Source: Rhodobiaceae bacterium
GTDB taxonomy: Bacteria; Pseudomonadota; Alphaproteobacteria; Micropepsales; Micropepsaceae
Length of the DNA stretch: 26,407 nt
NCBI GenBank assembly: GCA_031413455.1
Contig: JANOFD010000505.1
Location: forward strand, 1-26,407
Reading direction: 5' to 3'
Part shown: positions 971 to 21,945 of the stretch, piece after piece
Numbering within the stretch: position 1 is the first letter of the stretch
Layout of the letters: each line of letters starts with the position of its first letter
Translations under genes and position numbers: made by a program
Notes under the pieces: model-generated
What the model was told of the DNA's origin: nothing
Databases searched by the model: none
What the model saw: the letters and a program-made list of their open reading frames with translations, nothing else

Positions 971-1079
971 CGTCACCCCAGGGCGCGCCTCTTCGCGCGA
1001 GCCCTAGGACCACCTCGCAACGCGTTCCGCGCTTTGCCATGGATGCCGGGATCTACCAAGCGGCGGCCCCGGATTGACG
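971..1079. repeat. Degenerate REP/RIME-like intergenic palindromic element
   Basis: Ends CGTCACCCCAGGG and CCCCGGATTGACG are inverted repeats matching at 10 of 13 positions, with an internal GCGCG..CGCGC stem and TGGATGCCGGG. Resembles the CGTCATTCCGGG...CCCGGAATGACG repeats I recall from alphaproteobacterial intergenic regions. Sits between convergent genes. Confidence 0.6.
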
Positions 1080-1115
1080 AAGATGGGTATGAGTTGAATT
1101 TACTGCAAACGAGCC

Positions 1116-1415
1116 TCAATGCACGCTGACCGGATTCATCTCGTGCTGGCGGGCGGCGGCGAAGGCGAGGGCGCGGTCGCCGACGAGGGCGATGCGCTGG
1201 CCGTCGCTTGAGTGTACGGAATAAAGCGTCGTGTCGGCGGGAATGTCGATCACTGCGCCGGTGTCGTCGTCGACGAGGTCGGCGCGCACTTCGCTCGCGA
1301 GAACCGTGCGAACATAGACAAGCTTCTTGCCGCCGAGCGCCGCCAGATCGCGATCGCTCAAGGGACCTTGGGGTCCGCTTTCGGCATGCCGGTTCGACGA
1401 CTTAAGGCTGGCCAT
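1116..1415 (-). CDS. DUF1150 family protein
   Basis: LSDRDLAALGGKKLVYVR...LYSVHSSDGQRIALVGDRALAFAAARQHEMNPVSVH is typical of DUF1150. Start moved to ATG 1415, which follows GGAGG at 9 nt. Confidence 0.85.
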   Translation of the reverse strand: MASLKSSNRHAESGPQGPLSDRDLAALGGKKLVYVRTVLASEVRADLVDDDTGAVIDIPADTTLYSVHSSDGQRIALVGDRALAFAAARQHEMNPVSVH

Positions 1416-1463
1416 TGGCCAAATCCTCCATTCCATGCGTGTCGGACAAGTCCCGCCATGCCA

Positions 1464-1676
1464 TCACCGGCACACTTCGATCCCCGGCACGCGCGGCAGC
1501 ATCCAATCCAGCAAGATCAAATCTGGAGGCTCTTCCTGGACCATCAGCAGCGCCTCTTCGCCGTCCCGCGCTTCGGCAACCCGAAATCCTTCTTTCTCGA
1601 TATTGTAATGCAACAGCGTCGTCAGATGGGCTTCATCTTCCACGATCAACACCAGCGGTTTTCGGGCACCATTCAT
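1464..1676 (-). pseudogene. phoB: Truncated phosphate regulon response regulator PhoB (first 70 aa of the receiver domain only)
   Basis: LVLIVEDEAHLTTLLHYNIEKEGF...PDLILLDWMLPRVPGIEVCR* is PhoB-like and lies immediately after phoU with a GAGG RBS. It stops at TGA 1466-1464, and I found no PhoB continuation in another frame. Confidence 0.85.
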
Positions 1677-1698
1677 AAGAAGCACGCCTCAGCTCGTT

Positions 1699-2418
1699 CT
1701 ATGATTTCGCCACAGCCTGTACCGAAGTGGACGACGTCGTATCGCTCTTCGGCCGCAAGCTGCTCACTTTCAACCCCGTCACGATGTAGTGCACGGTTTC
1801 AGCAATATTGGTCGCATGATCGCCAACGCGTTCGAAGTTCTTGGCAATGAATAGCAAATGGGTCGCGTGGCTGATCTTGCGGGGATCTTCCATCATGTAG
1901 GTCAGCAGCTCGCGAAACAGCGAATTGTAAATCTCATCGATTTCGTCGTCACGGCTCCACACCGTCATCGCGGCGTTGGCATCGCGCCGGGAATACGCAT
2001 CCAACACATTCTTGACCTGCTGAAGCGACAACCGCCCCATGCGGACCAACCCTTGCGTTAGCGCTTGATCCGGTACGTCGCGCGCCACCACAAGTGCGCG
2101 TTTGGCAACATTCTTTGCCAAATCTCCAATCCGCTCCAGATCGGCGGAAATCTTGAGAGCAGCCAGCGTTTCGCGAAGATCGGTCGCCAACGGCTGACGC
2201 TGCGCCAACAACTGAGCCACCTGTTGCTCGATCTGGGTCTCCAGCCGGTCAATTGGAACATCGAGCTGCACGGTACGTTCGGCGATATCCATATCCCGCC
2301 GCGCGATGGACTCAATCGCATTGCCCAATTGTGTCTCGCACATTCCGCCCATCTGCACGATGGCCGTACTCAAGGCCTCGAGCTGATCATGGAAAGACTT
2401 AACAATGTGATCCGCCAT
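1699..2418 (-). CDS. phoU: Phosphate signalling complex protein PhoU
   Basis: MADHIVKSF...RQPLATDLR...DLERIGDLAKNVAKR...DDEID...LLTYMMEDPRKIS...AKNFERVGDHATNIAE. ATG 2418 follows GAGG. Confidence 0.97.
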   Translation of the reverse strand: MADHIVKSFHDQLEALSTAIVQMGGMCETQLGNAIESIARRDMDIAERTVQLDVPIDRLETQIEQQVAQLLAQRQPLATDLRETLAALKISADLERIGDLAKNVAKRALVVARDVPDQALTQGLVRMGRLSLQQVKNVLDAYSRRDANAAMTVWSRDDEIDEIYNSLFRELLTYMMEDPRKISHATHLLFIAKNFERVGDHATNIAETVHYIVTGLKVSSLRPKSDTTSSTSVQAVAKS

Positions 2419-2497
2419 ATCTGCCTCGTCAGTGAAAACAAAACCCAACATTTCCGGACGCCGCCACCCTGCCCCTCGTAGTGTAGCCGTGTCGGTC

Positions 2498-2530
2498 TAA
2501 TGTGACAATTCAGCGAAGGATTTATGACGA
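2498..2530 (-). promoter_or_regulatory. Candidate Pho box (three 11-bp units) upstream of phoU
   Basis: Minus strand reads TCGTCATAAAT / CCTTCGCTGAA / TTGTCACATTA in 11-bp phase against the consensus CTGTCAT-A/T-rich. Units 1 and 3 match well and unit 2 is weak. About 80 bp upstream of the phoU ATG. Confidence 0.5.
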
Positions 2531-5275
2531 GGTCAGAAGGCCTTGTTGCACCGCATCGCCCACACCCATCTCAGTGGCCAATGGAAGGTAGATTGTAAAC
2601 ACAGACCCCTCTCCAACCTGGCTTTCAATGGACAAGCGCCCGCGGTGGCGGTTGATAATATGTTTGACGATCGCAAGCCCCAAGCCCGTTCCGCCAATGG
2701 CACGGCTTCGGCGCGCGTCGACCCGGTAAAATCTCTCTGTCAGGCGCGGAATGTGCTCGCGCGCGATACCTTCGCCATGATCGCGCACGACGAGACAAAC
2801 TGAGGGTGAAGGCCCAGGCTCGCCCGGACCTGCGCGCCGGGTCGCCAATTCGATGGTGATGGAGGTTTGCGGTCTTCCATACTTGATCGCATTGTCAACC
2901 AGGTTTTGTATCACTTGGTAGAGTTCGTCCCGGTCACCTGCAACATTGGGCAAAGACGTAGGCTCAATAATTTCGAGCTGCATGTTCGCCGACACCGCCA
3001 TCGGTTGCAGGGCGTGAACAACCTCCTCGACCAAGTCCCCCACATTGACGCTGCCTGCGGGGCGTACGTGTTCGTTCAGTTCGATCCGGCTGAGCGACAA
3101 CAAATCATCGATGAGGCGCCGCATGCGAGCTGCCTGCTCCGCCATGATCGCCAAAAATCGCTCTTGGGCTTCCGGATCGTCCTTTGCATGGCCGCGCAAC
3201 GTATCGATAAATCCCGTCAGCGACGCCAACGGCGTTCGCAATTCGTGGCTGGCATTGGCAACAAAATCGGCCCGCATCTGTTCGACGCGTTGCGCTTTGG
3301 TCGTATCGTGCAAAACGATCAGCACCGCCTTGATTGTGCGATCTTCGCCTTGGATGGGTGCGATATCGGCCGTAAAATTCTGCTCGGGAGTACCAATGAT
3401 CGGGAATTCCACGCGCTGCGCGCCTCGCCCGGCCAACGTCGACTCCAACGCGCCCAGAACCTGCGGCGCGCGCATGACGCTCGCCAAATGCTTGCGTGGC
3501 TCCGCAACCCCCAGCAATTGCACTAGCACATCATTGGCGGCAACAATTCGTCCGCTGTGGTCAACCAGGATTGCAGCATCGGGCATGCGGCGAACAATCT
3601 CTGTCGCAGAAAAATCACTGGTCACCAGGTTCAGTGGTGCTTGTCCCGCCTTGTCGCCCGGCTGCTGAACAGAAGTGGCAGTCCTTGCAGGCAACGGTTC
3701 GGGAAGGCTGCGAACAAACCCAAGGCGGGCAACCGCAAACGCGCTCACGGCAACGGCAAGGATCAGGCAAAATGTCCACGCTTGCGTCCACGCCGCCAGC
3801 AGCAGCAGCGCGATCCAACACGCGGCGAGCGTCCACTTGATGTCGTCAAAGCGCGTGTTCAGCGCCGACTTCGTACGCCGGCGCTCATCCACGCGCGCAG
3901 TCGCACTGGCCTGAACACGTTCCGGCGCCACCCCGACAGAGGTCGCTTGCGTCTCTTCGCCTTGCACTGACATGCCAAATCCTTCAGCTGCATCGATGCC
4001 AACCTTGCCCCAAGATCGAGCGCCGCGCGGCTCTTCCACATAGAACCACAACATGACAGCGGCTGCGAGTTTCGCAACAACTGCCGCCGCAAACACAATT
4101 TCAAAACCCATACTCTCGGCGAGCTGCCCGCCAACAATGGCCCCAAAGACCTGAACCAGCGACTGCGCCGAATTAACCATCGCAATGCGCATCGGCAAGT
4201 CTTCGCGCGTTCCGAATTCAAGCACCATGTTCTGTGCCGCAATCTGAAATCCGGAATAACCGGCGCCAATTCCAACAAAGCAAAATATGACGCCGCTCTG
4301 ATCCGGTGCAAACGCTAAACCCACCGTTGCACCGGCCCACAATAACAACGCCGGTACAAAAACGGCCTTGAACCCCATCCGGTCGGCGAGCGCGCCCCAG
4401 CCAAGATTTGCAATCGTCTGCGACACAAGCAGCGCCAGTGAAAGCAATCCCAGCGTTTCGCCGGTCAACCCTTGAGTCTGTGCAATGAACAGAATGTAAA
4501 ATGGCAGCGCCAGCGTCCCCAGCGTCGCCAGCGACTGCGCCCAAAAATAAGCAGCGAAACCCCGGTCACGCAGCAGAGCCGGAATATCCCCGATGCGCTC
4601 GCGCACGCCAACCGGTGAACGCACAACAGGCGAAGAGGGCTCGCGCACAAGATACAGAAACGTCAGCCCGAAAGCCGTCAAAACAAAGGCAAGCAGAAAA
4701 GTCGAAGCGTAGCCATTGCCCAGCGCATCATGCTCAACAAGGTAGGTGCCACCAAAATAAGCAACCGCCGACGCCGTCATCCCGCCAAGGAAATTTCTGA
4801 GCCCGATCAACATACCCCGGCGATCCGCCGGTATCGTCTTGGTCAACAAGACATTCCAAAGCACGCCCTGCATGCCCGAAAAAATACCCAGTAGTCCCAG
4901 AAACACCGCAAAGACGTACAGGGTAATTCCCGGTGGCAACAGAAATCCAGCCAGCGCCAGCCCCAGCACGGACAGGCGCATCATCCAGCCGTAGCGCAAG
5001 CCCAAATCGACAATGCGCCGCCGGTGCTCGACCGCAGTCGCGCCGAACACGCTGCTGAAAAAAGAACCAAGATGCTGGGTCGCCAGGATCAAACCGACGA
5101 TGGCGGTGGAGCCTGACAGGGCAAACAGATAGGCGGGGACAAAGGTTGGCGCATTGACAAGGCGAAAGCCGGTCATTGCCAACATGCCGTGCGCAAGTTG
5201 GCTCAGGTAGTTTCGCGTCAGATTTGTGGCAACTTCCTCTTGGAACTGCGCCTCGGCACGGGCTTCGTCATTCAC
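2522..5275 (-). CDS. phoR: MFS transporter (aa ~1-420) fused in frame to a PhoR-like sensor histidine kinase (aa 435-917)
   Basis: One uninterrupted 917-aa frame from GTG 5275. The N-terminal part has about 12 hydrophobic segments, MFS loop motifs (WGALADRMG) and ends in VEEPR. The C-terminal part has 2 TM segments, a PAS domain (MPDAAILVD...LHDTT), the H-box RADFVANASHELRTPL, and NLVDNAIKY, DHGEGI, RLTERFYRVD and GGTGLGLAIVKH. Lies directly upstream of phoU. Confidence 0.88.
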   Translation of the reverse strand: MNDEARAEAQFQEEVATNLTRNYLSQLAHGMLAMTGFRLVNAPTFVPAYLFALSGSTAIVGLILATQHLGSFFSSVFGATAVEHRRRIVDLGLRYGWMMRLSVLGLALAGFLLPPGITLYVFAVFLGLLGIFSGMQGVLWNVLLTKTIPADRRGMLIGLRNFLGGMTASAVAYFGGTYLVEHDALGNGYASTFLLAFVLTAFGLTFLYLVREPSSPVVRSPVGVRERIGDIPALLRDRGFAAYFWAQSLATLGTLALPFYILFIAQTQGLTGETLGLLSLALLVSQTIANLGWGALADRMGFKAVFVPALLLWAGATVGLAFAPDQSGVIFCFVGIGAGYSGFQIAAQNMVLEFGTREDLPMRIAMVNSAQSLVQVFGAIVGGQLAESMGFEIVFAAAVVAKLAAAVMLWFYVEEPRGARSWGKVGIDAAEGFGMSVQGEETQATSVGVAPERVQASATARVDERRRTKSALNTRFDDIKWTLAACWIALLLLAAWTQAWTFCLILAVAVSAFAVARLGFVRSLPEPLPARTATSVQQPGDKAGQAPLNLVTSDFSATEIVRRMPDAAILVDHSGRIVAANDVLVQLLGVAEPRKHLASVMRAPQVLGALESTLAGRGAQRVEFPIIGTPEQNFTADIAPIQGEDRTIKAVLIVLHDTTKAQRVEQMRADFVANASHELRTPLASLTGFIDTLRGHAKDDPEAQERFLAIMAEQAARMRRLIDDLLSLSRIELNEHVRPAGSVNVGDLVEEVVHALQPMAVSANMQLEIIEPTSLPNVAGDRDELYQVIQNLVDNAIKYGRPQTSITIELATRRAGPGEPGPSPSVCLVVRDHGEGIAREHIPRLTERFYRVDARRSRAIGGTGLGLAIVKHIINRHRGRLSIESQVGEGSVFTIYLPLATEMGVGDAVQQGLLTSS

Positions 5276-5299
5276 GGTTTGTCGATCAGTCCTGTAACT

Positions 5300-6160
5300 T
5301 CAAACTCCGTGCGACTTAAACCATGCCAGACCCCGCGCCCATGCGTCTTTTGCGGCAGCCTCGTTGAAGCTGGGCCGGTAGTCCGCCAGGAACCCATGGT
5401 CGGCGCCCGGATAAACCACGATCTCGCTTTTGCTATCGCCAACCGCGGCAAGGGCCGCACGCATGGCATCGATCTGCGAAAGCGCGATGCCTTTATCGAG
5501 TTCACCATAGAGGCCAAGCATACGCCCCTTAAAGCCGGCCGCGACCTCCACCGGATGCTTGGCTTGCGTGTTGCCTTCGCGCCGGACCATTTGCCCGTAC
5601 CAGGCAACGCCCGCCTTCACGTTTGGATTGTGCGCCGTGTAAAGCCAGGTCACGCGTCCGCCCCAGCAAAATCCAGTCACGGCAATGCGTCCGCCATTAC
5701 CGCCATTGCCCGCCACCCATTTGGACGTGGCATCAAGATCGCTCATCACCGTCGCATCGTCGGTCTTTGCCACGATCTCACTTACGAGCTTGGGAATGTC
5801 GGTGTAGGCCGTCGCATCACCTTGCCGGGAATAAAGATAAGGCGCCACCGCCAGATACCCCTGCTTGGCAAACCGCCGGCAGATATCCTTCATCCACTCA
5901 TGCACGCCGAAAATTTCGTGCACCACGATCACGGTCGGCAGATTGACACCGTTGACGGGCATGGCGCGAAATGCAGGAATCTCACCATCGCTAACCGGAA
6001 TCTTGACGTCCCCGCTTACCAAACCACTGTCGTCGGTCACGATCACCGCCGCCGAGACCGGTTGCACCGAGAGCGCGAACCCCGCCGCCAGGCTTGTCAC
6101 CACAATCGTTCGCCTGTCGATGGGCAAACGCAAAGCATCGTCTTTAGAATGGCCCGTCAT
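5300..6160 (-). CDS. Dienelactone hydrolase family protein with a Tat-like N-terminus
   Basis: VVHEIFGVHEW, nucleophile motif GFCWGG, YG..D..I and YPGADHGF (Cys-Asp-His triad). N-terminus IDRRTIVVTSLAAGFALSV. Confidence 0.93.
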   Translation of the reverse strand: MTGHSKDDALRLPIDRRTIVVTSLAAGFALSVQPVSAAVIVTDDSGLVSGDVKIPVSDGEIPAFRAMPVNGVNLPTVIVVHEIFGVHEWMKDICRRFAKQGYLAVAPYLYSRQGDATAYTDIPKLVSEIVAKTDDATVMSDLDATSKWVAGNGGNGGRIAVTGFCWGGRVTWLYTAHNPNVKAGVAWYGQMVRREGNTQAKHPVEVAAGFKGRMLGLYGELDKGIALSQIDAMRAALAAVGDSKSEIVVYPGADHGFLADYRPSFNEAAAKDAWARGLAWFKSHGV

Positions 6161-6178
6161 GACAAAAATCACTCCCTT

Positions 6179-6880
6179 CTAGCGAACCCGCCGCACAGAT
6201 TCAGTCCGGTCGTTAAAACCAAAGGCCCACAAATTTGTCTGCGTGCGGTCGATAGTCACGCAAAACCCGCGATAGTTTGGCCGGTCACATAATTGCCAAA
6301 CGCCGCCCTGCACCACCACACTCGACGCAATATTTCCAAATTCGTCTGCGTTGAGGTTTGGGATGTCACTGGAATAGTTTCGCGACCGGCCGCCAAAGTT
6401 GGTGTTCTTGTAAAGAATAATCCTGCCCGGCCCATGATTGGACCCTAGTTCCCGCCGGCACTGGAGCATCCCATCGCTATTGGCGATATCACCCCGGCAA
6501 GACCGGAAGCCATTCAGTTCCGTATAGCGCCAGCGCCCGTTGCGATCCTGGCATTCGGCCGTCAGTGTTCCCCGTTCTGCATGCTCATCGCGGCATGTGC
6601 GCTGATAGCTTCCGGCTGGCAAGTCATCTTCGTCATCGCGCCAATCGCTTTGGCATTCCAGTTGGCCATTGTTATTGATGATGTCCCCATCGCAATCGTC
6701 ATAGTTGTCGAGTGATGTATCCCTCCATCGTCCATAGGGCGTCCTGCAAGTAGCCCACAGCGTATTCGCGCTGGCATCGATATCGCGGCATGATCGCTGA
6801 TAACTTCCCGGCGGCGCAGCCTCGGCCAAGGCGGGGCCTGTCACAAACAAGATTGCAAAAGCCGCTAAAATGAACCTCAT
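6179..6880 (-). CDS. Secreted protein with two Cys-rich CVNH-like repeats and a C-terminal beta/gamma-crystallin domain
   Basis: Signal peptide; two 54-aa repeats (PxGSYQRxCRD...C...GRWR...C.GDI.N..G.L.C) at aa 23-76 and 88-141; then LYKNTNFGGRS...GNIASS...WQLCDRPNYRGFC...NDRTES. Confidence 0.8.
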   Translation of the reverse strand: MRFILAAFAILFVTGPALAEAAPPGSYQRSCRDIDASANTLWATCRTPYGRWRDTSLDNYDDCDGDIINNNGQLECQSDWRDDEDDLPAGSYQRTCRDEHAERGTLTAECQDRNGRWRYTELNGFRSCRGDIANSDGMLQCRRELGSNHGPGRIILYKNTNFGGRSRNYSSDIPNLNADEFGNIASSVVVQGGVWQLCDRPNYRGFCVTIDRTQTNLWAFGFNDRTESVRRVR

Positions 6881-7023
6881 GAAATCACCCGATACTGACT
6901 GGCCGCAGAACCTGCGGAACCCATCACCGAATTACGGCTGAAATGCGTCGCCTTGGCAAGGGCATGCCTTAAGCTCGCCGCGATTTCTTGAGAAATCTGC
7001 GCTTCAATGTTCAACGGGCACTC

Positions 7024-7521
7024 ATGAAACTCCCCATTCTCGCCATGTGTTTGCTGGTGGCTGTCGCAGGACTTGCAACCGCCACTGCCGGCCAGACTAC
7101 GGCCAACCTCATCATCGTCGAAAAAGCCAAGCGGGTTCTGTCCTTGTACAACGGCAAGAATCTCATCAAGACCTACCGCATCGCCCTCGGCGGAAACCCG
7201 CTAGGTCACAAAGAGCAGGAGGGCGACTCGCGCACGCCCGAAGGCCGCTACATCATCGATGCCAAAAATCCATGGTCCAGCTTTCACCTGTCACTGCGCA
7301 TTTCGTATCCCAACAGGCGGGACCAGGCCGCAGCCCGGCGTCGCGGGGTTTCCCCGGGCGGCGCAATCATGATCCATGGCACGCCCGGCTCACTTGCAAC
7401 ACTGACCGCCGCAGGCTTTTATCCCGATTGGACGGCGGGCTGCATTGCGGTGACAAACAAGGACATCGAAGAAATCTACGCCAAAATTCGCAATGGCACG
7501 CCAATTGTAATCAAGCCATAA
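7024..7521 (+). CDS. L,D-transpeptidase (YkuD) family protein, YafK/DpaA-like
   Basis: Signal peptide, [21 protein letters not shown], and catalytic IHG...[11 protein letters not shown] 7024 chosen over the upstream TTG. Confidence 0.9.
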
Positions 7522-12542: not shown

Positions 12543-14329
12543 CTAATACGTTCGCGCCTTTGGCTCGACATAGTCCACGTCTTTGCTCAGCGTGTATGTA
12601 TGCACGGGCCGATAATCGAGTTTGACCTTGCCGCTTTTCGTGTCGAACCACGAAAGCGTATGCTTCATCCACTTTTCATCATTGCGCTGCGCGAAATCTT
12701 CGCGCGCATGCGCCCCGCGGCTTTCCTCACGCGCCGCCGCACTCTCGACAGTCACCGCAGCCTGCGCAATCAGATTGTCGAGCTCAAGCGTCTCGACCAG
12801 ATCCGAGTTCCAGATCATCGACCTGTCCTTCACGTCGATATCCGGCATTTGGCTGTAGACCCCCGCGATCAGCTCACAGCCTTCGCGCAAAACGTCACCC
12901 GTGCGGAACACCGGGCAATGCGACTGCATCGTCCGCTGCATGCTGAGCCGCAGCTGCGCGGTTGAAACCGTGCCCTTCGCGTGACGGAAACGATCAAGTC
13001 GCGCCAGCGCACCGTCGCCAGCGCCCTTGGCCAGATCAGCCTGCCGATCTCCGGAATTGATGTCGGCCACGCACTTCATGCCCGCCGCCCGCCCGAACAC
13101 AACGAGGTCGGTCAGCGAATTTGAACCCAGACGATTGGCGCCGTGAACCGACACGCATGCCGCCTCACCGATCGCCATCAAGCCCGGCACGATAGCGTCG
13201 GGATTGCCGTCTTTGAGCGTCACGACCTCGCCATGATAATTCGTAGGGATGCCGCCCATATTGTAGTGCACCGTCGGCAATACGGGGATCGGCTGTTTCG
13301 TAACATCAACCCCGGCAAAAATACGCGCAGACTCCGCGATGCCGGGCAGCCGCTCGTGGATGATCTTCGGATCGAGATGGCTCAGATGCAGATGCACGTG
13401 ATCCTTGAGCGGGCCACAACCCCGTCCCTCGCGAATTTCAATCGTCATCGCCCGGCTGACAACGTCACGCGAGGCAAGATCCTTGGCGTGCGGGGCGTAA
13501 CGCTCCATGAAGCGCTCGCCGTTCGCATTGGTGACATAACCGCCTTCGCCGCGCACACCTTCAGTAATCAAAACGCCCGCGCCGTAAACGCCGGTCGGAT
13601 GGAACTGGATGAACTCCATGTCCTGCAACGGCAGGCCCGCCCGCAGCACCATGGCGTTACCGTCGCCGGTGCAGGTATGAGCCGAGGTGCAGGTGAAATA
13701 CGTACGGCCATAGCCGCCCGTCGCCAGGATAACGCGTTGCGCGCGGAAACGATGGATCGACCCGTCATCCAGACACCAGGCCATCCGCCGCGGCACTGCC
13801 CATCCTCCATGATCAGGTCAAGCGCAAAATACTCGATATAGAATTCCGCATCATGCCGAAGGCTCTGGCCATACAGCGAATGCAGGATCGCATGGCCCGT
13901 GCGGTCGGCAGCCGCAGCCGTTCGCTGGATCGCCGCTTTGCCGAACTCTTTCGTCATGCCACCAAAGGCTCGCTGATAGATGCGCCCGTCTTCTGTCCGG
14001 CTGAACGGCACGCCGAAATGCTCAAGCTCATAAACGGCTTCCGCTGCGTTCCGGCACAGATACTCGATCGCATCTTGGTCGCCCAGCCAGTCCGATCCCT
14101 TCACAGTGTCGTACATGTGCCAGCGCCAGTCGTCAGGTTCCATGTTGCCAAGCGCCGCTGATATGCCGCCTTGGGCCGCCACCGTATGACTGCGCGTGGG
14201 AAAAACCTTTGTGATGTTGGCAACCTTCAGGCCGTGGCGCGCCGCCTCAAGCGTCGCGCGCAACCCCGATCCTCCCGCGCCGACAACAACCACGTCATAG
14301 GTATGATCGATAATCTTGTAAGCCGTCAT
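12543..14329 (-). pseudogene. sdhA: Succinate dehydrogenase flavoprotein subunit, frameshifted as written (possibly a sequence error)
   Basis: N-terminal half ([24 protein letters not shown]) and C-terminal half ([39 protein letters not shown]) are in different frames. Junction TGC CGC GGC GG ATG GCC TGG at about 13785; adding one base gives 595 aa. Confidence 0.92.
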
Positions 14330-20025: not shown

Positions 20026-21318
20026 GTGCGCCTTCGCACATTGTTGTCCGTGCGGTCGCTGGGAATTATCGGTCAAATCGTTGCAATCGTGATCGTGTTC
20101 TTCGGTCTGAAATATCAGATGCCGATCGGTCAATGTCTGGCTGTTATTTCTGTCGCCATAGCTTTCAATGCAACGCTTTTCGCCACCTACCCCAACGTTC
20201 ACATGCTCAACGAGCGCGAGGCTGCAACACATCTTGCCTTCGATATTTGTCAACTGACAGCGATGTTGGCGCTGACCGGCGGGATACAAAACCCCTTTGC
20301 TTTGCTCTACATGGCGCCCGTTGTCATATCTGCAAGCAACCTCAGCCTGGGCGCAACACTCGCCCTTGCGATGCTGGCCTTCGGCAGCATCTCCGTCATT
20401 TCATTTTTGCATTGGCCTTTGCCTTGGGATCCCCAAGACCCGCTTTTACTGCCTCCACTCTATGTCGCCGGCAACTGGATTTCCCTCACACTCGGCATCG
20501 GCTTTTGCCTGATATACGCATGGCGTACCGCTGACGAAGCCCGCCGCATGCATGCAGCGCTGGCGGCCACCCAGTCCGCACTCGCCCGTGAGCAACGCCT
20601 GTCCGACTTGGGTGCCCTTGCCGCGGCCGCTGCGCACGAACTCGGCACGCCCCTGGGTACGATCGCCATTGTCGCGCGTGAACTCGAACGCGACATGGGC
20701 GCTTCCAGCAAATGGATCGAGGACGTTCGCCTGTTACGCAGCCAAGCCGAAAGATGCAGGCAAATCCTGTCGCAACTCGCCCAACAGGACACCGGTGAAG
20801 ATACGATTGCAAAACGCCTGCCGCTGGCTGCCCTCATCGATGAAATTGCAGAACCCCATCGCGGCTTTGGCATCGACATCAATTTAAACATCCACACGCC
20901 CGGACAATTAACCGTCGTCAGGACCCCGGAAGTGGTGCATGGCCTTGGAAATCTGATAGAAAATGCCGTCGATTTTGCAAAAACCAAAGTCGATATCGAT
21001 GCTCAATGGGACCACGAGACTATTGTGCTAACCATAATCGACGATGGCTCCGGCTTTGATCAGGAAATATTGGTACGGCTGGGCGAGCCTTATGTGACCT
21101 CGCGCTCCGGAATAGATGCGCCGCGTCCGGCCAACGCGAACACCACCACCCACGCCGAAGGACATGCCGGGATGGGATTGGGCTTTTTCATCGCCAAAAC
21201 CCTGCTTGAACGCATCGGTAGTCAAATGACCTTTGGTAACCAACCGGGTTCTGGTGCGCGCATCCGATTAAATATCCCGCGCAAGAGTCTGGAAAACCCC
21301 GCAAACTCACGCGTGTGA
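20026..21318 (+). CDS. regB: RegB/PrrB/ActS family redox sensor histidine kinase
   Basis: Six TM segments with the quinone-binding GGIQNPF, H-box AAAAAHELGTPL, redox cysteine in AERCRQIL, NAVDFA and GMGLGFFI. Confidence 0.95.
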   Translation: MRLRTLLSVRSLGIIGQIVAIVIVFFGLKYQMPIGQCLAVISVAIAFNATLFATYPNVHMLNEREAATHLAFDICQLTAMLALTGGIQNPFALLYMAPVVISASNLSLGATLALAMLAFGSISVISFLHWPLPWDPQDPLLLPPLYVAGNWISLTLGIGFCLIYAWRTADEARRMHAALAATQSALAREQRLSDLGALAAAAAHELGTPLGTIAIVARELERDMGASSKWIEDVRLLRSQAERCRQILSQLAQQDTGEDTIAKRLPLAALIDEIAEPHRGFGIDINLNIHTPGQLTVVRTPEVVHGLGNLIENAVDFAKTKVDIDAQWDHETIVLTIIDDGSGFDQEILVRLGEPYVTSRSGIDAPRPANANTTTHAEGHAGMGLGFFIAKTLLERIGSQMTFGNQPGSGARIRLNIPRKSLENPANSRV

Positions 21319-21393
21319 GGAACGCTAGCATGCGGCGACAATCCTCTCTATATTCAGCAAAACCGCCTTTTGACCCTTTTGAGGTAACCACCC

Positions 21394-21945
21394 GTGGCCC
21401 TGTCTGCCGAAGGATTGCCCGACAAAACTCTTTTGATCGTTGATGACGATGGACCATTTCGGCTGCGCCTGGCGCGCGCAATGGAAGCGCGTGGGTTCTT
21501 GGTCACAGCCGCTGAAACGGCCGACGAAGCCATTGCCTTGTCGAGGCGCACGCCCCCCGCCTTTGCCGTTGTTGACCTGAGACTGGGGCAATCAGGCAAT
21601 GGCCTCGACGTCGTTGACGTCATTCATCAAACCAGGCCCGACGCCCGTGTTGTCATTCTCACAGGTTATGGAAATATCGCCACCGCCGTTGCCGCGGTAA
21701 AGCACGGCGCTGTCGATTATTTGTCGAAACCTGCTGATGCTGACGACGTGGCGGCCGCATTGCTGGCCCATCCGCGATCTAAGCCCGCGCCGCCCGACAA
21801 TCCAATGTCTGCAGACCGCGTCCGCTGGGAACACATACAACGCGTATATGAGCTGTGCGGGCAAAACGTGTCTGAAACGGCCCGGCGCCTGAACATGCAT
21901 CGCCGCACGCTTCAACGCATCTTGGCCAAACGCTCTCCAAAATAG
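21394..21945 (+). CDS. regA: RegA/PrrA/ActR family response regulator
   Basis: VVDLRLG, LTGYGNIATAVAAVK, PMSADRVRWEHIQRVYELCGQNVSETARRLNMHRRTLQRILAKR. Confidence 0.98.
   Translation: MALSAEGLPDKTLLIVDDDGPFRLRLARAMEARGFLVTAAETADEAIALSRRTPPAFAVVDLRLGQSGNGLDVVDVIHQTRPDARVVILTGYGNIATAVAAVKHGAVDYLSKPADADDVAAALLAHPRSKPAPPDNPMSADRVRWEHIQRVYELCGQNVSETARRLNMHRRTLQRILAKRSPK

Follow-up and report, generated by a model that had tools for sequence, protein, structure and literature searches.

Whether a secondary transporter can feed PhoR is the question raised by a stretch of DNA from a Rhodobiaceae bacterium of the family Micropepsaceae (contig JANOFD010000505.1 of GenBank assembly GCA_031413455.1, positions 1 to 26,407 of the forward strand; this whole stretch of 26,407 nucleotides is called the window in what follows). 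One open reading frame on its reverse strand, 2522-5275 with the stop codon included, begins at a GTG and runs for 917 amino acids through a permease of the major facilitator superfamily (MFS) and then through a PhoR-type histidine kinase. How PhoR perceives phosphate is still argued, there being no obvious sensing domain and a dependence on PstSCAB and PhoU, and an earlier note on this DNA had put the frame forward as a candidate transceptor. The fusion is real, lineage-specific and selectively maintained, the gene is probably a two-isoform gene and a co-sensor role for the MFS part is plausible. What makes the locus of interest is that a second membrane machine is covalently attached to PhoR and has been kept so over a long evolutionary span.

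A complete permease joined to a complete PhoR

Pfam places MFS_1 (8e-29) in the first half of the 917-residue protein, followed by a weak PAS_4 and then by HisKA and HATPase_c, and the boundaries of the parts come from an AlphaFold2 model built from 51 homologues, with a mean predicted local distance difference test score (pLDDT) of 73. The MFS domain (residues 1-417, 4025-5275; this and all other parts of the fusion lie on the minus strand) is modelled as 12 transmembrane (TM) helices between residues 2 and 412, two sets of six (6+6) on either side of a cytoplasmic loop at 208-237, and it carries a motif-A-like GxLADRxGxK between TM8 and TM9. A disordered cytoplasmic linker follows (residues 418-470, 3866-4024; pLDDT 23-32), variable in sequence and in length. 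The earlier note had given the linker about 17 residues, and 17 residues do lie between the EPR and the following Met, but in the model about 54 residues (418-471) separate MFS helix 12 from the first membrane helix of PhoR. PhoR then opens with a two-helix membrane hairpin (residues 471-522, 3710-3865; helices 471-497 and 500-522) with the conserved sequence DDIKW...AAWT..WTFC...ARLGFVRS. After a second disordered stretch in the model (524-555) comes a cytoplasmic PAS domain (557-657, 3305-3607), which Pfam scores below cut-off as PAS_4 (E=0.0037) and which is modelled as a helix-and-strand domain. The kinase core (2576-3301) consists of the DHp/HisKA domain (659-736, with the H-box SHELRTPL; Pfam HisKA 4.1e-19) and the HATPase_c domain (742-900; 2.5e-29). 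The topology is coherent in the model, the C-terminus of the MFS part lying inside the cell, to be followed by the PhoR hairpin and by a PAS domain that is again inside.

Translation, Pfam and AlphaFold2 bear out the earlier claim that one 917-residue frame holds a complete MFS protein of about 12 TM helices and an intact PhoR. The gene is a single one, its permease has all 12 helices, the histidine kinase that follows is a whole PhoR, and a flexible tether of about 54 residues links them on the cytoplasmic side. In its structure and in its gene context the kinase half qualifies as a PhoR. The NCBIfam model TIGR02966 (phoR_proteo) covers residues 559-896 with 324-327 bits for a cut-off of 334, one that only 1 of 14 control genomes passes, and by this model the fusion is the only PhoR orthologue of its genome (327 bits; the next match has 171). 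Foldseek aligned residues 7-429 of E. coli PhoR to residues 476-902 of the fusion.

Such a frame could be an artefact, with two ordinary neighbouring genes merged through a sequencing or assembly indel, and in keeping with this the assembly is fragmented (844 contigs) and the window has other oddities, in that phoB is cut short and sdhA may be frameshifted. The organism is present in freshwater-sediment samples (public runs X1-X5), and contigs from public runs were aligned to positions 1000-5400 of the window. A 2759-nucleotide contig from the run X1 is identical over 2031-4789, junction included, and an independent 4547-nucleotide contig from a different study (X5) spans 1467-5363 in the same frame, with 41 substitutions and zero gaps. 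No insertion or deletion was reported in any of the four runs. Further, about 30 species have the frame open, at identities down to 56% and with single-contig genomes among them. The artefact is already refuted by these comparative data and its probability is close to nil.

When proteins were searched with the junction at the centre of the query, more than 50 clusters matched, each about 910-955 residues long, all with MFS, HisKA and HATPase domains and with 64-95% overall identity. Of the 24 same-genus species drawn first, 20 had an uninterrupted full-length frame, the others being cut by contig ends save for G018, where the gene is split. A wider search took in 301 genomes of the order, all of one family; it matched 34 of 34 same-genus species, 29 of which are listed with a full-length uninterrupted frame, and found the fused frame uninterrupted also in G064, from a sister genus, at 56% identity. 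The uninterrupted frame recurs in about 30 same-genus species and one sister-genus species. In the other six genera PhoR is separate, with an open frame of about 430-560 residues, and the MFS orthologue, where present, is separate as well, at a distant locus and with 45-49% identity. Frames of about 900 residues around the MFS in sister genera were considered as further fusions and rejected as open-frame artefacts of GC-rich DNA upstream of ordinary genes of about 450 residues. Similarly, four proteins of 508-540 residues (P0055-P0058), considered as stand-alone PhoR-like proteins, are actually fusions truncated at the ends of contigs. In a set of 1.84 billion cluster representatives, 99 clusters belong to the MFS subfamily at E<=1e-30, and only 1 of them is fused. 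The named records that carry the fusion are all metagenome-assembled genomes, labelled Micropepsaceae or Alphaproteobacteria with a few under other labels, and the carriers are uncultured freshwater and soil alphaproteobacteria.

In a maximum-likelihood tree of the PhoR part all fused proteins, G064 included, group in a single clade (support 100/99) to the exclusion of the stand-alone PhoRs, and the split G018 is nested within it. The simplest history is one fusion event in an uncultured Micropepsaceae lineage plus one secondary split. Pairwise ratios of nonsynonymous to synonymous substitution rates across 29 species, where synonymous divergence is about 1, are 0.135 for the MFS domain, 0.114 for the PAS-kinase part, 0.24 for the PhoR hairpin and about 0.47 for the spacers. 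Judged by these ratios both halves are under strong purifying selection, equally tight in each, and the fusion is kept by selection.

An internal start in the linker

Within the linker the ATG at 3971-3973 encodes M435, the candidate start of a 483-residue PhoR that lacks the MFS, and it is preceded by the Shine-Dalgarno-like motif GAAGGA at 3980-3985, whose core, A[G/A]GG from −11 to −8, is conserved. The earlier note had drawn attention to this pair, and it proves to be the only conserved strong pairing of Shine-Dalgarno motif and start in the gene. All of 51 proteins have M435, and so does each full-length fused locus of the genus in two overlapping locus sets. All 30 genus loci have the core, 28 of them with G and 2 with A at −10, and −7 is never C. 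At the protein level codon −4 reads E, Q, K or G and codon −3 reads G or E; a codon NAR, unless it is a stop, can read only E, Q or K, and so the constraint looks to be on the nucleotides, as for a Shine-Dalgarno sequence about 7 nucleotides before an ATG. The gene has 13 conserved start-type codons and only M435 has strong predicted pairing with the anti-Shine-Dalgarno sequence (median −7.6 kcal/mol), the next best of the other 12 reaching −4.9 kcal/mol and the rest being weaker than −3. In the window itself the pairing at M435 is modest (−5.5 kcal/mol), which is a caveat for the internal start. A promoter and terminator scan of 1400-7100 gave counts at chance and no internal promoter before M435.

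Differences in linker length among the relatives all preserve the frame except in G018 (MAG RBC032; locus L035, G018:C2, local positions 3021-3127), where there is one extra base between the Shine-Dalgarno motif and the ATG. There the shifted MFS frame stops 14 codons on to give a 453-residue MFS, PhoR starts exactly at the conserved Met, and the two frames overlap by about 100 nucleotides, both genes being intact and of ordinary branch lengths. That a single indel would give two ordinary genes had been foreseen in the earlier note, and the one-nucleotide insertion of G018 does precisely this; its reading of an out-of-frame TGA (3986-3984) overlapping the Shine-Dalgarno motif, and of an in-frame CGA (R420, 4018-4016), is likewise correct.

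The conservation of M435 together with its Shine-Dalgarno motif, and an insertion in G018 exactly at that place, make a short PhoR isoform likely. Stand-alone relatives have only about 10-15 residues before the first PhoR helix, with residue 7 of E. coli PhoR corresponding to residue 476 of the fusion, and so the short isoform would be longer at its N-terminus, by a disordered tail of some 35-40 residues. As far as the sequence goes, it is rather probable that the gene makes two proteins, the full fusion and the 483-residue MFS-less PhoR that would start at M435.

What the permease may do for PhoR

If the MFS were an unchanged carrier that happens to be tied to a kinase, its conserved residues might be expected to persist, and they were compared with 22 stand-alone homologues from several phyla, in which 102 positions are at least 95% conserved. 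The fused MFS keeps 81 of these 102, short of the full conservation that was taken as a proxy for unchanged transport function. Three changes are fixed in all fused forms, namely G33 to A in TM1 (codon of A33, 5179-5177), Q102 to S in TM3 (codon of S102, 4972-4970) and R247 to Q in TM7 (codon of Q247, 4537-4535). They occur in every fused form, G064 and the split G018 included, and in none of the stand-alone homologues examined, those of the same family included. The loss of a buried arginine that is otherwise family-wide suggests a changed ligand or a receptor-only role; the three together are a predicted remodelling of the cavity after fusion, and the protein may now have a different ligand or be a receptor instead of a carrier. 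The PhoR hairpin differs too. At a PAS-kinase identity of 0.62-0.72 the hairpin identity is 0.43-0.51 among fused proteins and 0.22-0.31 for five stand-alone PhoRs, or 0.7-0.8 of the PAS-kinase identity as against 0.32-0.45. A better conserved hairpin along with remodelled MFS residues is not what a passive anchor predicts. A docking prediction of the MFS (1-417) against the PhoR hairpin (466-530) gave a score of 0.00, which is evidence neither way.

The explanation that seems best overall, and which is modestly favoured, is of a genuine fusion under selection, with two probable isoforms and with the MFS as a co-sensor. The last of these parts, an MFS module that would act as a tethered co-sensor for PhoR, is on sequence grounds quite possible though a little short of probable. 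In such an arrangement a substrate- or conformation-dependent state of the MFS would be read via membrane contacts with the conserved PhoR hairpin, and the MFS input would add to the usual PstSCAB/PhoU route; with both the full fusion and the MFS-less PhoR at hand, kinase dimers could hold two, one or no transporter modules. The label transceptor is a reasonable inference here. A more committed form would have the MFS turned, by loss of the TM7 arginine and the TM3 glutamine, from a carrier into a ligand receptor that docks on the PhoR hairpin and gives a direct ligand input to a kinase known to lack a sensing domain; the internal start would yield MFS-less PhoR alongside, and the gain would be set by mixed dimers. 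This is unlikely though worth keeping in view.

A serious rival, which is itself somewhat unlikely, has the MFS merely tied on. Here the loss of a stop codon would have joined an upstream MFS gene to phoR with the halves remaining independent, the MFS still transporting and PhoR signalling via PstSCAB/PhoU, the fusion being harmless or aiding co-expression and membrane co-localisation, and the internal start supplying the PhoR that signals. The long, disordered and variable linker and the conserved internal Shine-Dalgarno motif and ATG fit such a history, as do the life of G018 with two separate intact genes and an MFS subfamily without Pho context. It also has a parallel in CbrA, where the transporter domain is non-essential for kinase activity and histidine leaves the activities unchanged (PMC7096432). 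Set against these are the single split in about 30 assessable loci, although the spacer before the Met has several length differences, each of which leaves the frame intact, the cavity residues remodelled along with the fusion, and a PhoR hairpin whose conservation relative to the kinase is two to three times that of stand-alone PhoRs.

Several points count against a sensing permease with two isoforms and have to be weighed with it. The tether is long, disordered and fast-evolving and so cannot transmit force, and any coupling must come from contacts between domains. On the stand-alone side the hairpin comparison has no more than five sequences, and alignment is poor for divergent membrane segments. 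In G064 the Met is kept and the Shine-Dalgarno motif is weak, the E/Q-G residues before M435 could be a protein motif instead, and G018 is a viable split state. No cultured carrier is among the named records of the fusion. The Pho box CTGTCAT-N4-CTGTCAT, with up to 3 mismatches allowed, has a single match in the window, at the level of chance, and a scan of up to 1.5 kb upstream of the fusion in 30 loci gave no conserved match. Lastly, the stand-alone MFS homologues are never beside Pho genes in the loci examined, the subfamily being without a link to phosphate.

That last point bears also on the earlier note, which had gone further and suggested that a secondary transporter could supply the signal in place of Pst, a reading in which the MFS would be a carrier of phosphate or organophosphate. 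The fusion does sit in a phoR-phoU-phoB cluster with no adjacent pst genes and the MFS has faint matches to the PgtP and UhpT models, and this is as far as the proposal gets, since pstS-pstC-pstA-pstB lie on contig C621 of this genome, where PstB exceeds its NCBIfam cut-off, and phoU is retained directly downstream of the fusion. A cluster without pst is not special to the fusion because the unfused G066, of a sister genus, has the same layout, with PhoR, PhoU and then a response-regulator gene and no pst between. The matches to the organophosphate:Pi antiporter (OPA) family are 30 bits for PgtP (cut-off 408) and 19 bits for UhpT (cut-off 497), weaker than those of generic drug-efflux models, and the TM7 arginine, a conserved residue that could have served an anion site, is gone from the fused forms. 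A replacement of Pst by the MFS is thus very improbable. Membership of the OPA family (UhpT, UhpC, GlpT, PgtP) was likewise rejected for the fused MFS on these scores, which are far below cut-offs and unspecific. At the position of pstC on C621 there is an unusually long gene of 881 residues (L048:1458-4103, plus strand) with its permease domain only at 687-876 and with weak beta-propeller (WD40-like) matches, far below cut-offs, at residues 278-470.

Leads to a substrate were sought in three places. A PDB sequence search returned only NorA and Qdr2 at E 2e-4 or weaker, the ESM Atlas gave clusters named "MFS transporter" only, and in Foldseek against Swiss-Prot models the kinase half dominated the matches. 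The stand-alone homologues, of which one of about 50% identity is at locus L104 of the cultured Noviherbaspirillum aridicola, have as neighbours an MFS_3 gene, aldo-keto reductases and housekeeping genes. The MFS_3 (PF05977) gene is beside them repeatedly, in Micropepsaceae and in Myxococcota, with an aldo-keto reductase elsewhere (L041 622-2163, L044 3644-5092, L088 4554-5999 and L085 3277-4611; also L084 379-1365 and L036 4527-5468), and proteins of the P0059 type, of 660 residues, have aldo-keto-reductase and MFS domains in one chain.

Directly downstream of the fusion is phoU (1699-2451, minus strand; 250 residues with two PhoU repeats, Pfam PhoU 2.8e-47), and the order in which PhoU follows a fused or unfused PhoR is repeated in relatives, as is a response-regulator gene, with receiver and DNA-binding domains, after phoU. 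In the window this place is taken by a 5' fragment of phoB with 71 codons (1464-1676, minus strand; TIGR02154 positions 4-69), which ends abruptly at a TGA. Exactly at that TGA the contig goes over to an unrelated gene, of the DUF1150 kind (1116-1436), with the breakpoint at 1466/1467. To the left of 1467 the X5 contig has a different sequence, in which further response-regulator coding sequence can be translated by eye, and a short low-depth contig of X1 bridges the 1466/1467 join, which is either a chimeric assembly join or a strain-specific deletion. A full phoB was not found elsewhere in the assembly, where the best match has 199 bits for a cut-off of 296, and contig C310, considered for the missing half of phoB, was rejected as it encodes a different OmpR-family regulator. 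Upstream of the fusion by 24 nucleotides is a dienelactone-hydrolase-family gene (5300-6172, minus strand; Pfam DLH 2.5e-53), probably in the same operon, and in G005 the order is again dienelactone hydrolase (L003 605-1465), fusion, PhoU and then a response-regulator gene.

Three further observations concern other genes of the window. Two genes upstream of the fusion and on the same strand, 6179-6880 encodes a 233-residue protein with CVNH (cyanovirin-like lectin) and beta/gamma-crystallin domains. At 20026-21945 (plus strand) there is a second two-component pair, unrelated to the Pho locus, of a histidine kinase (430 residues) and then a response-regulator-like gene (183 residues). The SdhA-like flavoprotein frame (12543-13796, minus strand) matches only positions 181-414 of the FAD_binding_2 profile, and an overlapping frame on the same strand (13568-14329) may hold its missing N-terminal part, a possible frameshift or assembly error.

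Relation to known transporter-linked kinases

Canonical PhoR-PhoB takes its input from PstSCAB/PhoU in E. coli and in most proteobacteria. To that system the fusion is close in most respects, its C-terminal 440 residues aligning full length with E. coli and P. aeruginosa PhoR, with two TM helices and almost no periplasmic loop, a PAS domain, the H-box and the catalytic (CA) domain, with phoU and phoB downstream and with pstSCAB in the genome. It is unlike it in the preceding 12-TM MFS and the tether of about 54 residues, in a far better conserved hairpin and in the absence of adjacent pst genes. The nearest functional analogue for a signal from an MFS protein to a kinase is the UhpC-UhpB pair of E. 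coli, in which an MFS protein turned sensor controls a membrane histidine kinase. There the two are separate polypeptides and UhpC belongs to the organophosphate:Pi antiporter family, whereas the MFS of the fusion is outside that family and is covalently joined. Yeast Pho84 is an MFS phosphate carrier that also signals phosphate status, to PKA, and differs in being eukaryotic, without a covalent kinase and of another MFS subfamily. No paper describing an MFS-PhoR or MFS-kinase fusion was found in the literature searched, in which subscription journals are thinly covered.

The three fusion-specific MFS substitutions, the conserved PhoR hairpin and the conserved internal start with its natural split in G018 are handles that make it directly testable whether a secondary transporter can feed PhoR, and the gene is at the same time a clean candidate for a bacterial two-isoform gene with nested starts. 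Were the ligand-receptor reading true, the Pho regulon would have an input that does not depend on Pst, and the gene would be the first transceptor to join an MFS protein to a histidine kinase.

In overall plan the fusion most resembles the SLC5-STAC kinases CbrA and CrbS (PMC7096432, PMC13488458, PMC9100948), which also have a full secondary transporter N-terminal to a PAS-DHp-CA kinase in one polypeptide. It departs from them in having an MFS and not an SLC5 transporter, a place in the Pho regulon, and a disordered tether followed by its own two-helix anchor; Pfam gives only MFS_1, PAS_4, HisKA and HATPase_c for it, with no SLC5 (SSS) or STAC domain. For a remodelled cavity in the fused MFS there is a precedent in the ammonium sensor histidine kinase Ks-Amt5, which no longer completes transport according to Pfluger et al. 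2018 as cited in PMC11152129. Ks-Amt5 and Sd-Amt1 similarly reuse a transporter scaffold as a receptor joined to a signalling module, and differ in the Amt fold, in a transducer attached directly or via HAMP and in having no part in Pho signalling. The fusion belongs neither with CbrA/CrbS nor with Ks-Amt5, since its transporter is of another superfamily and it has neither a STAC nor a direct coupling domain. To the short list of transporter-kinase fusions, with SLC5 in CbrA and Amt in Ks-Amt5, the present gene would add the MFS, the largest of the transporter superfamilies.

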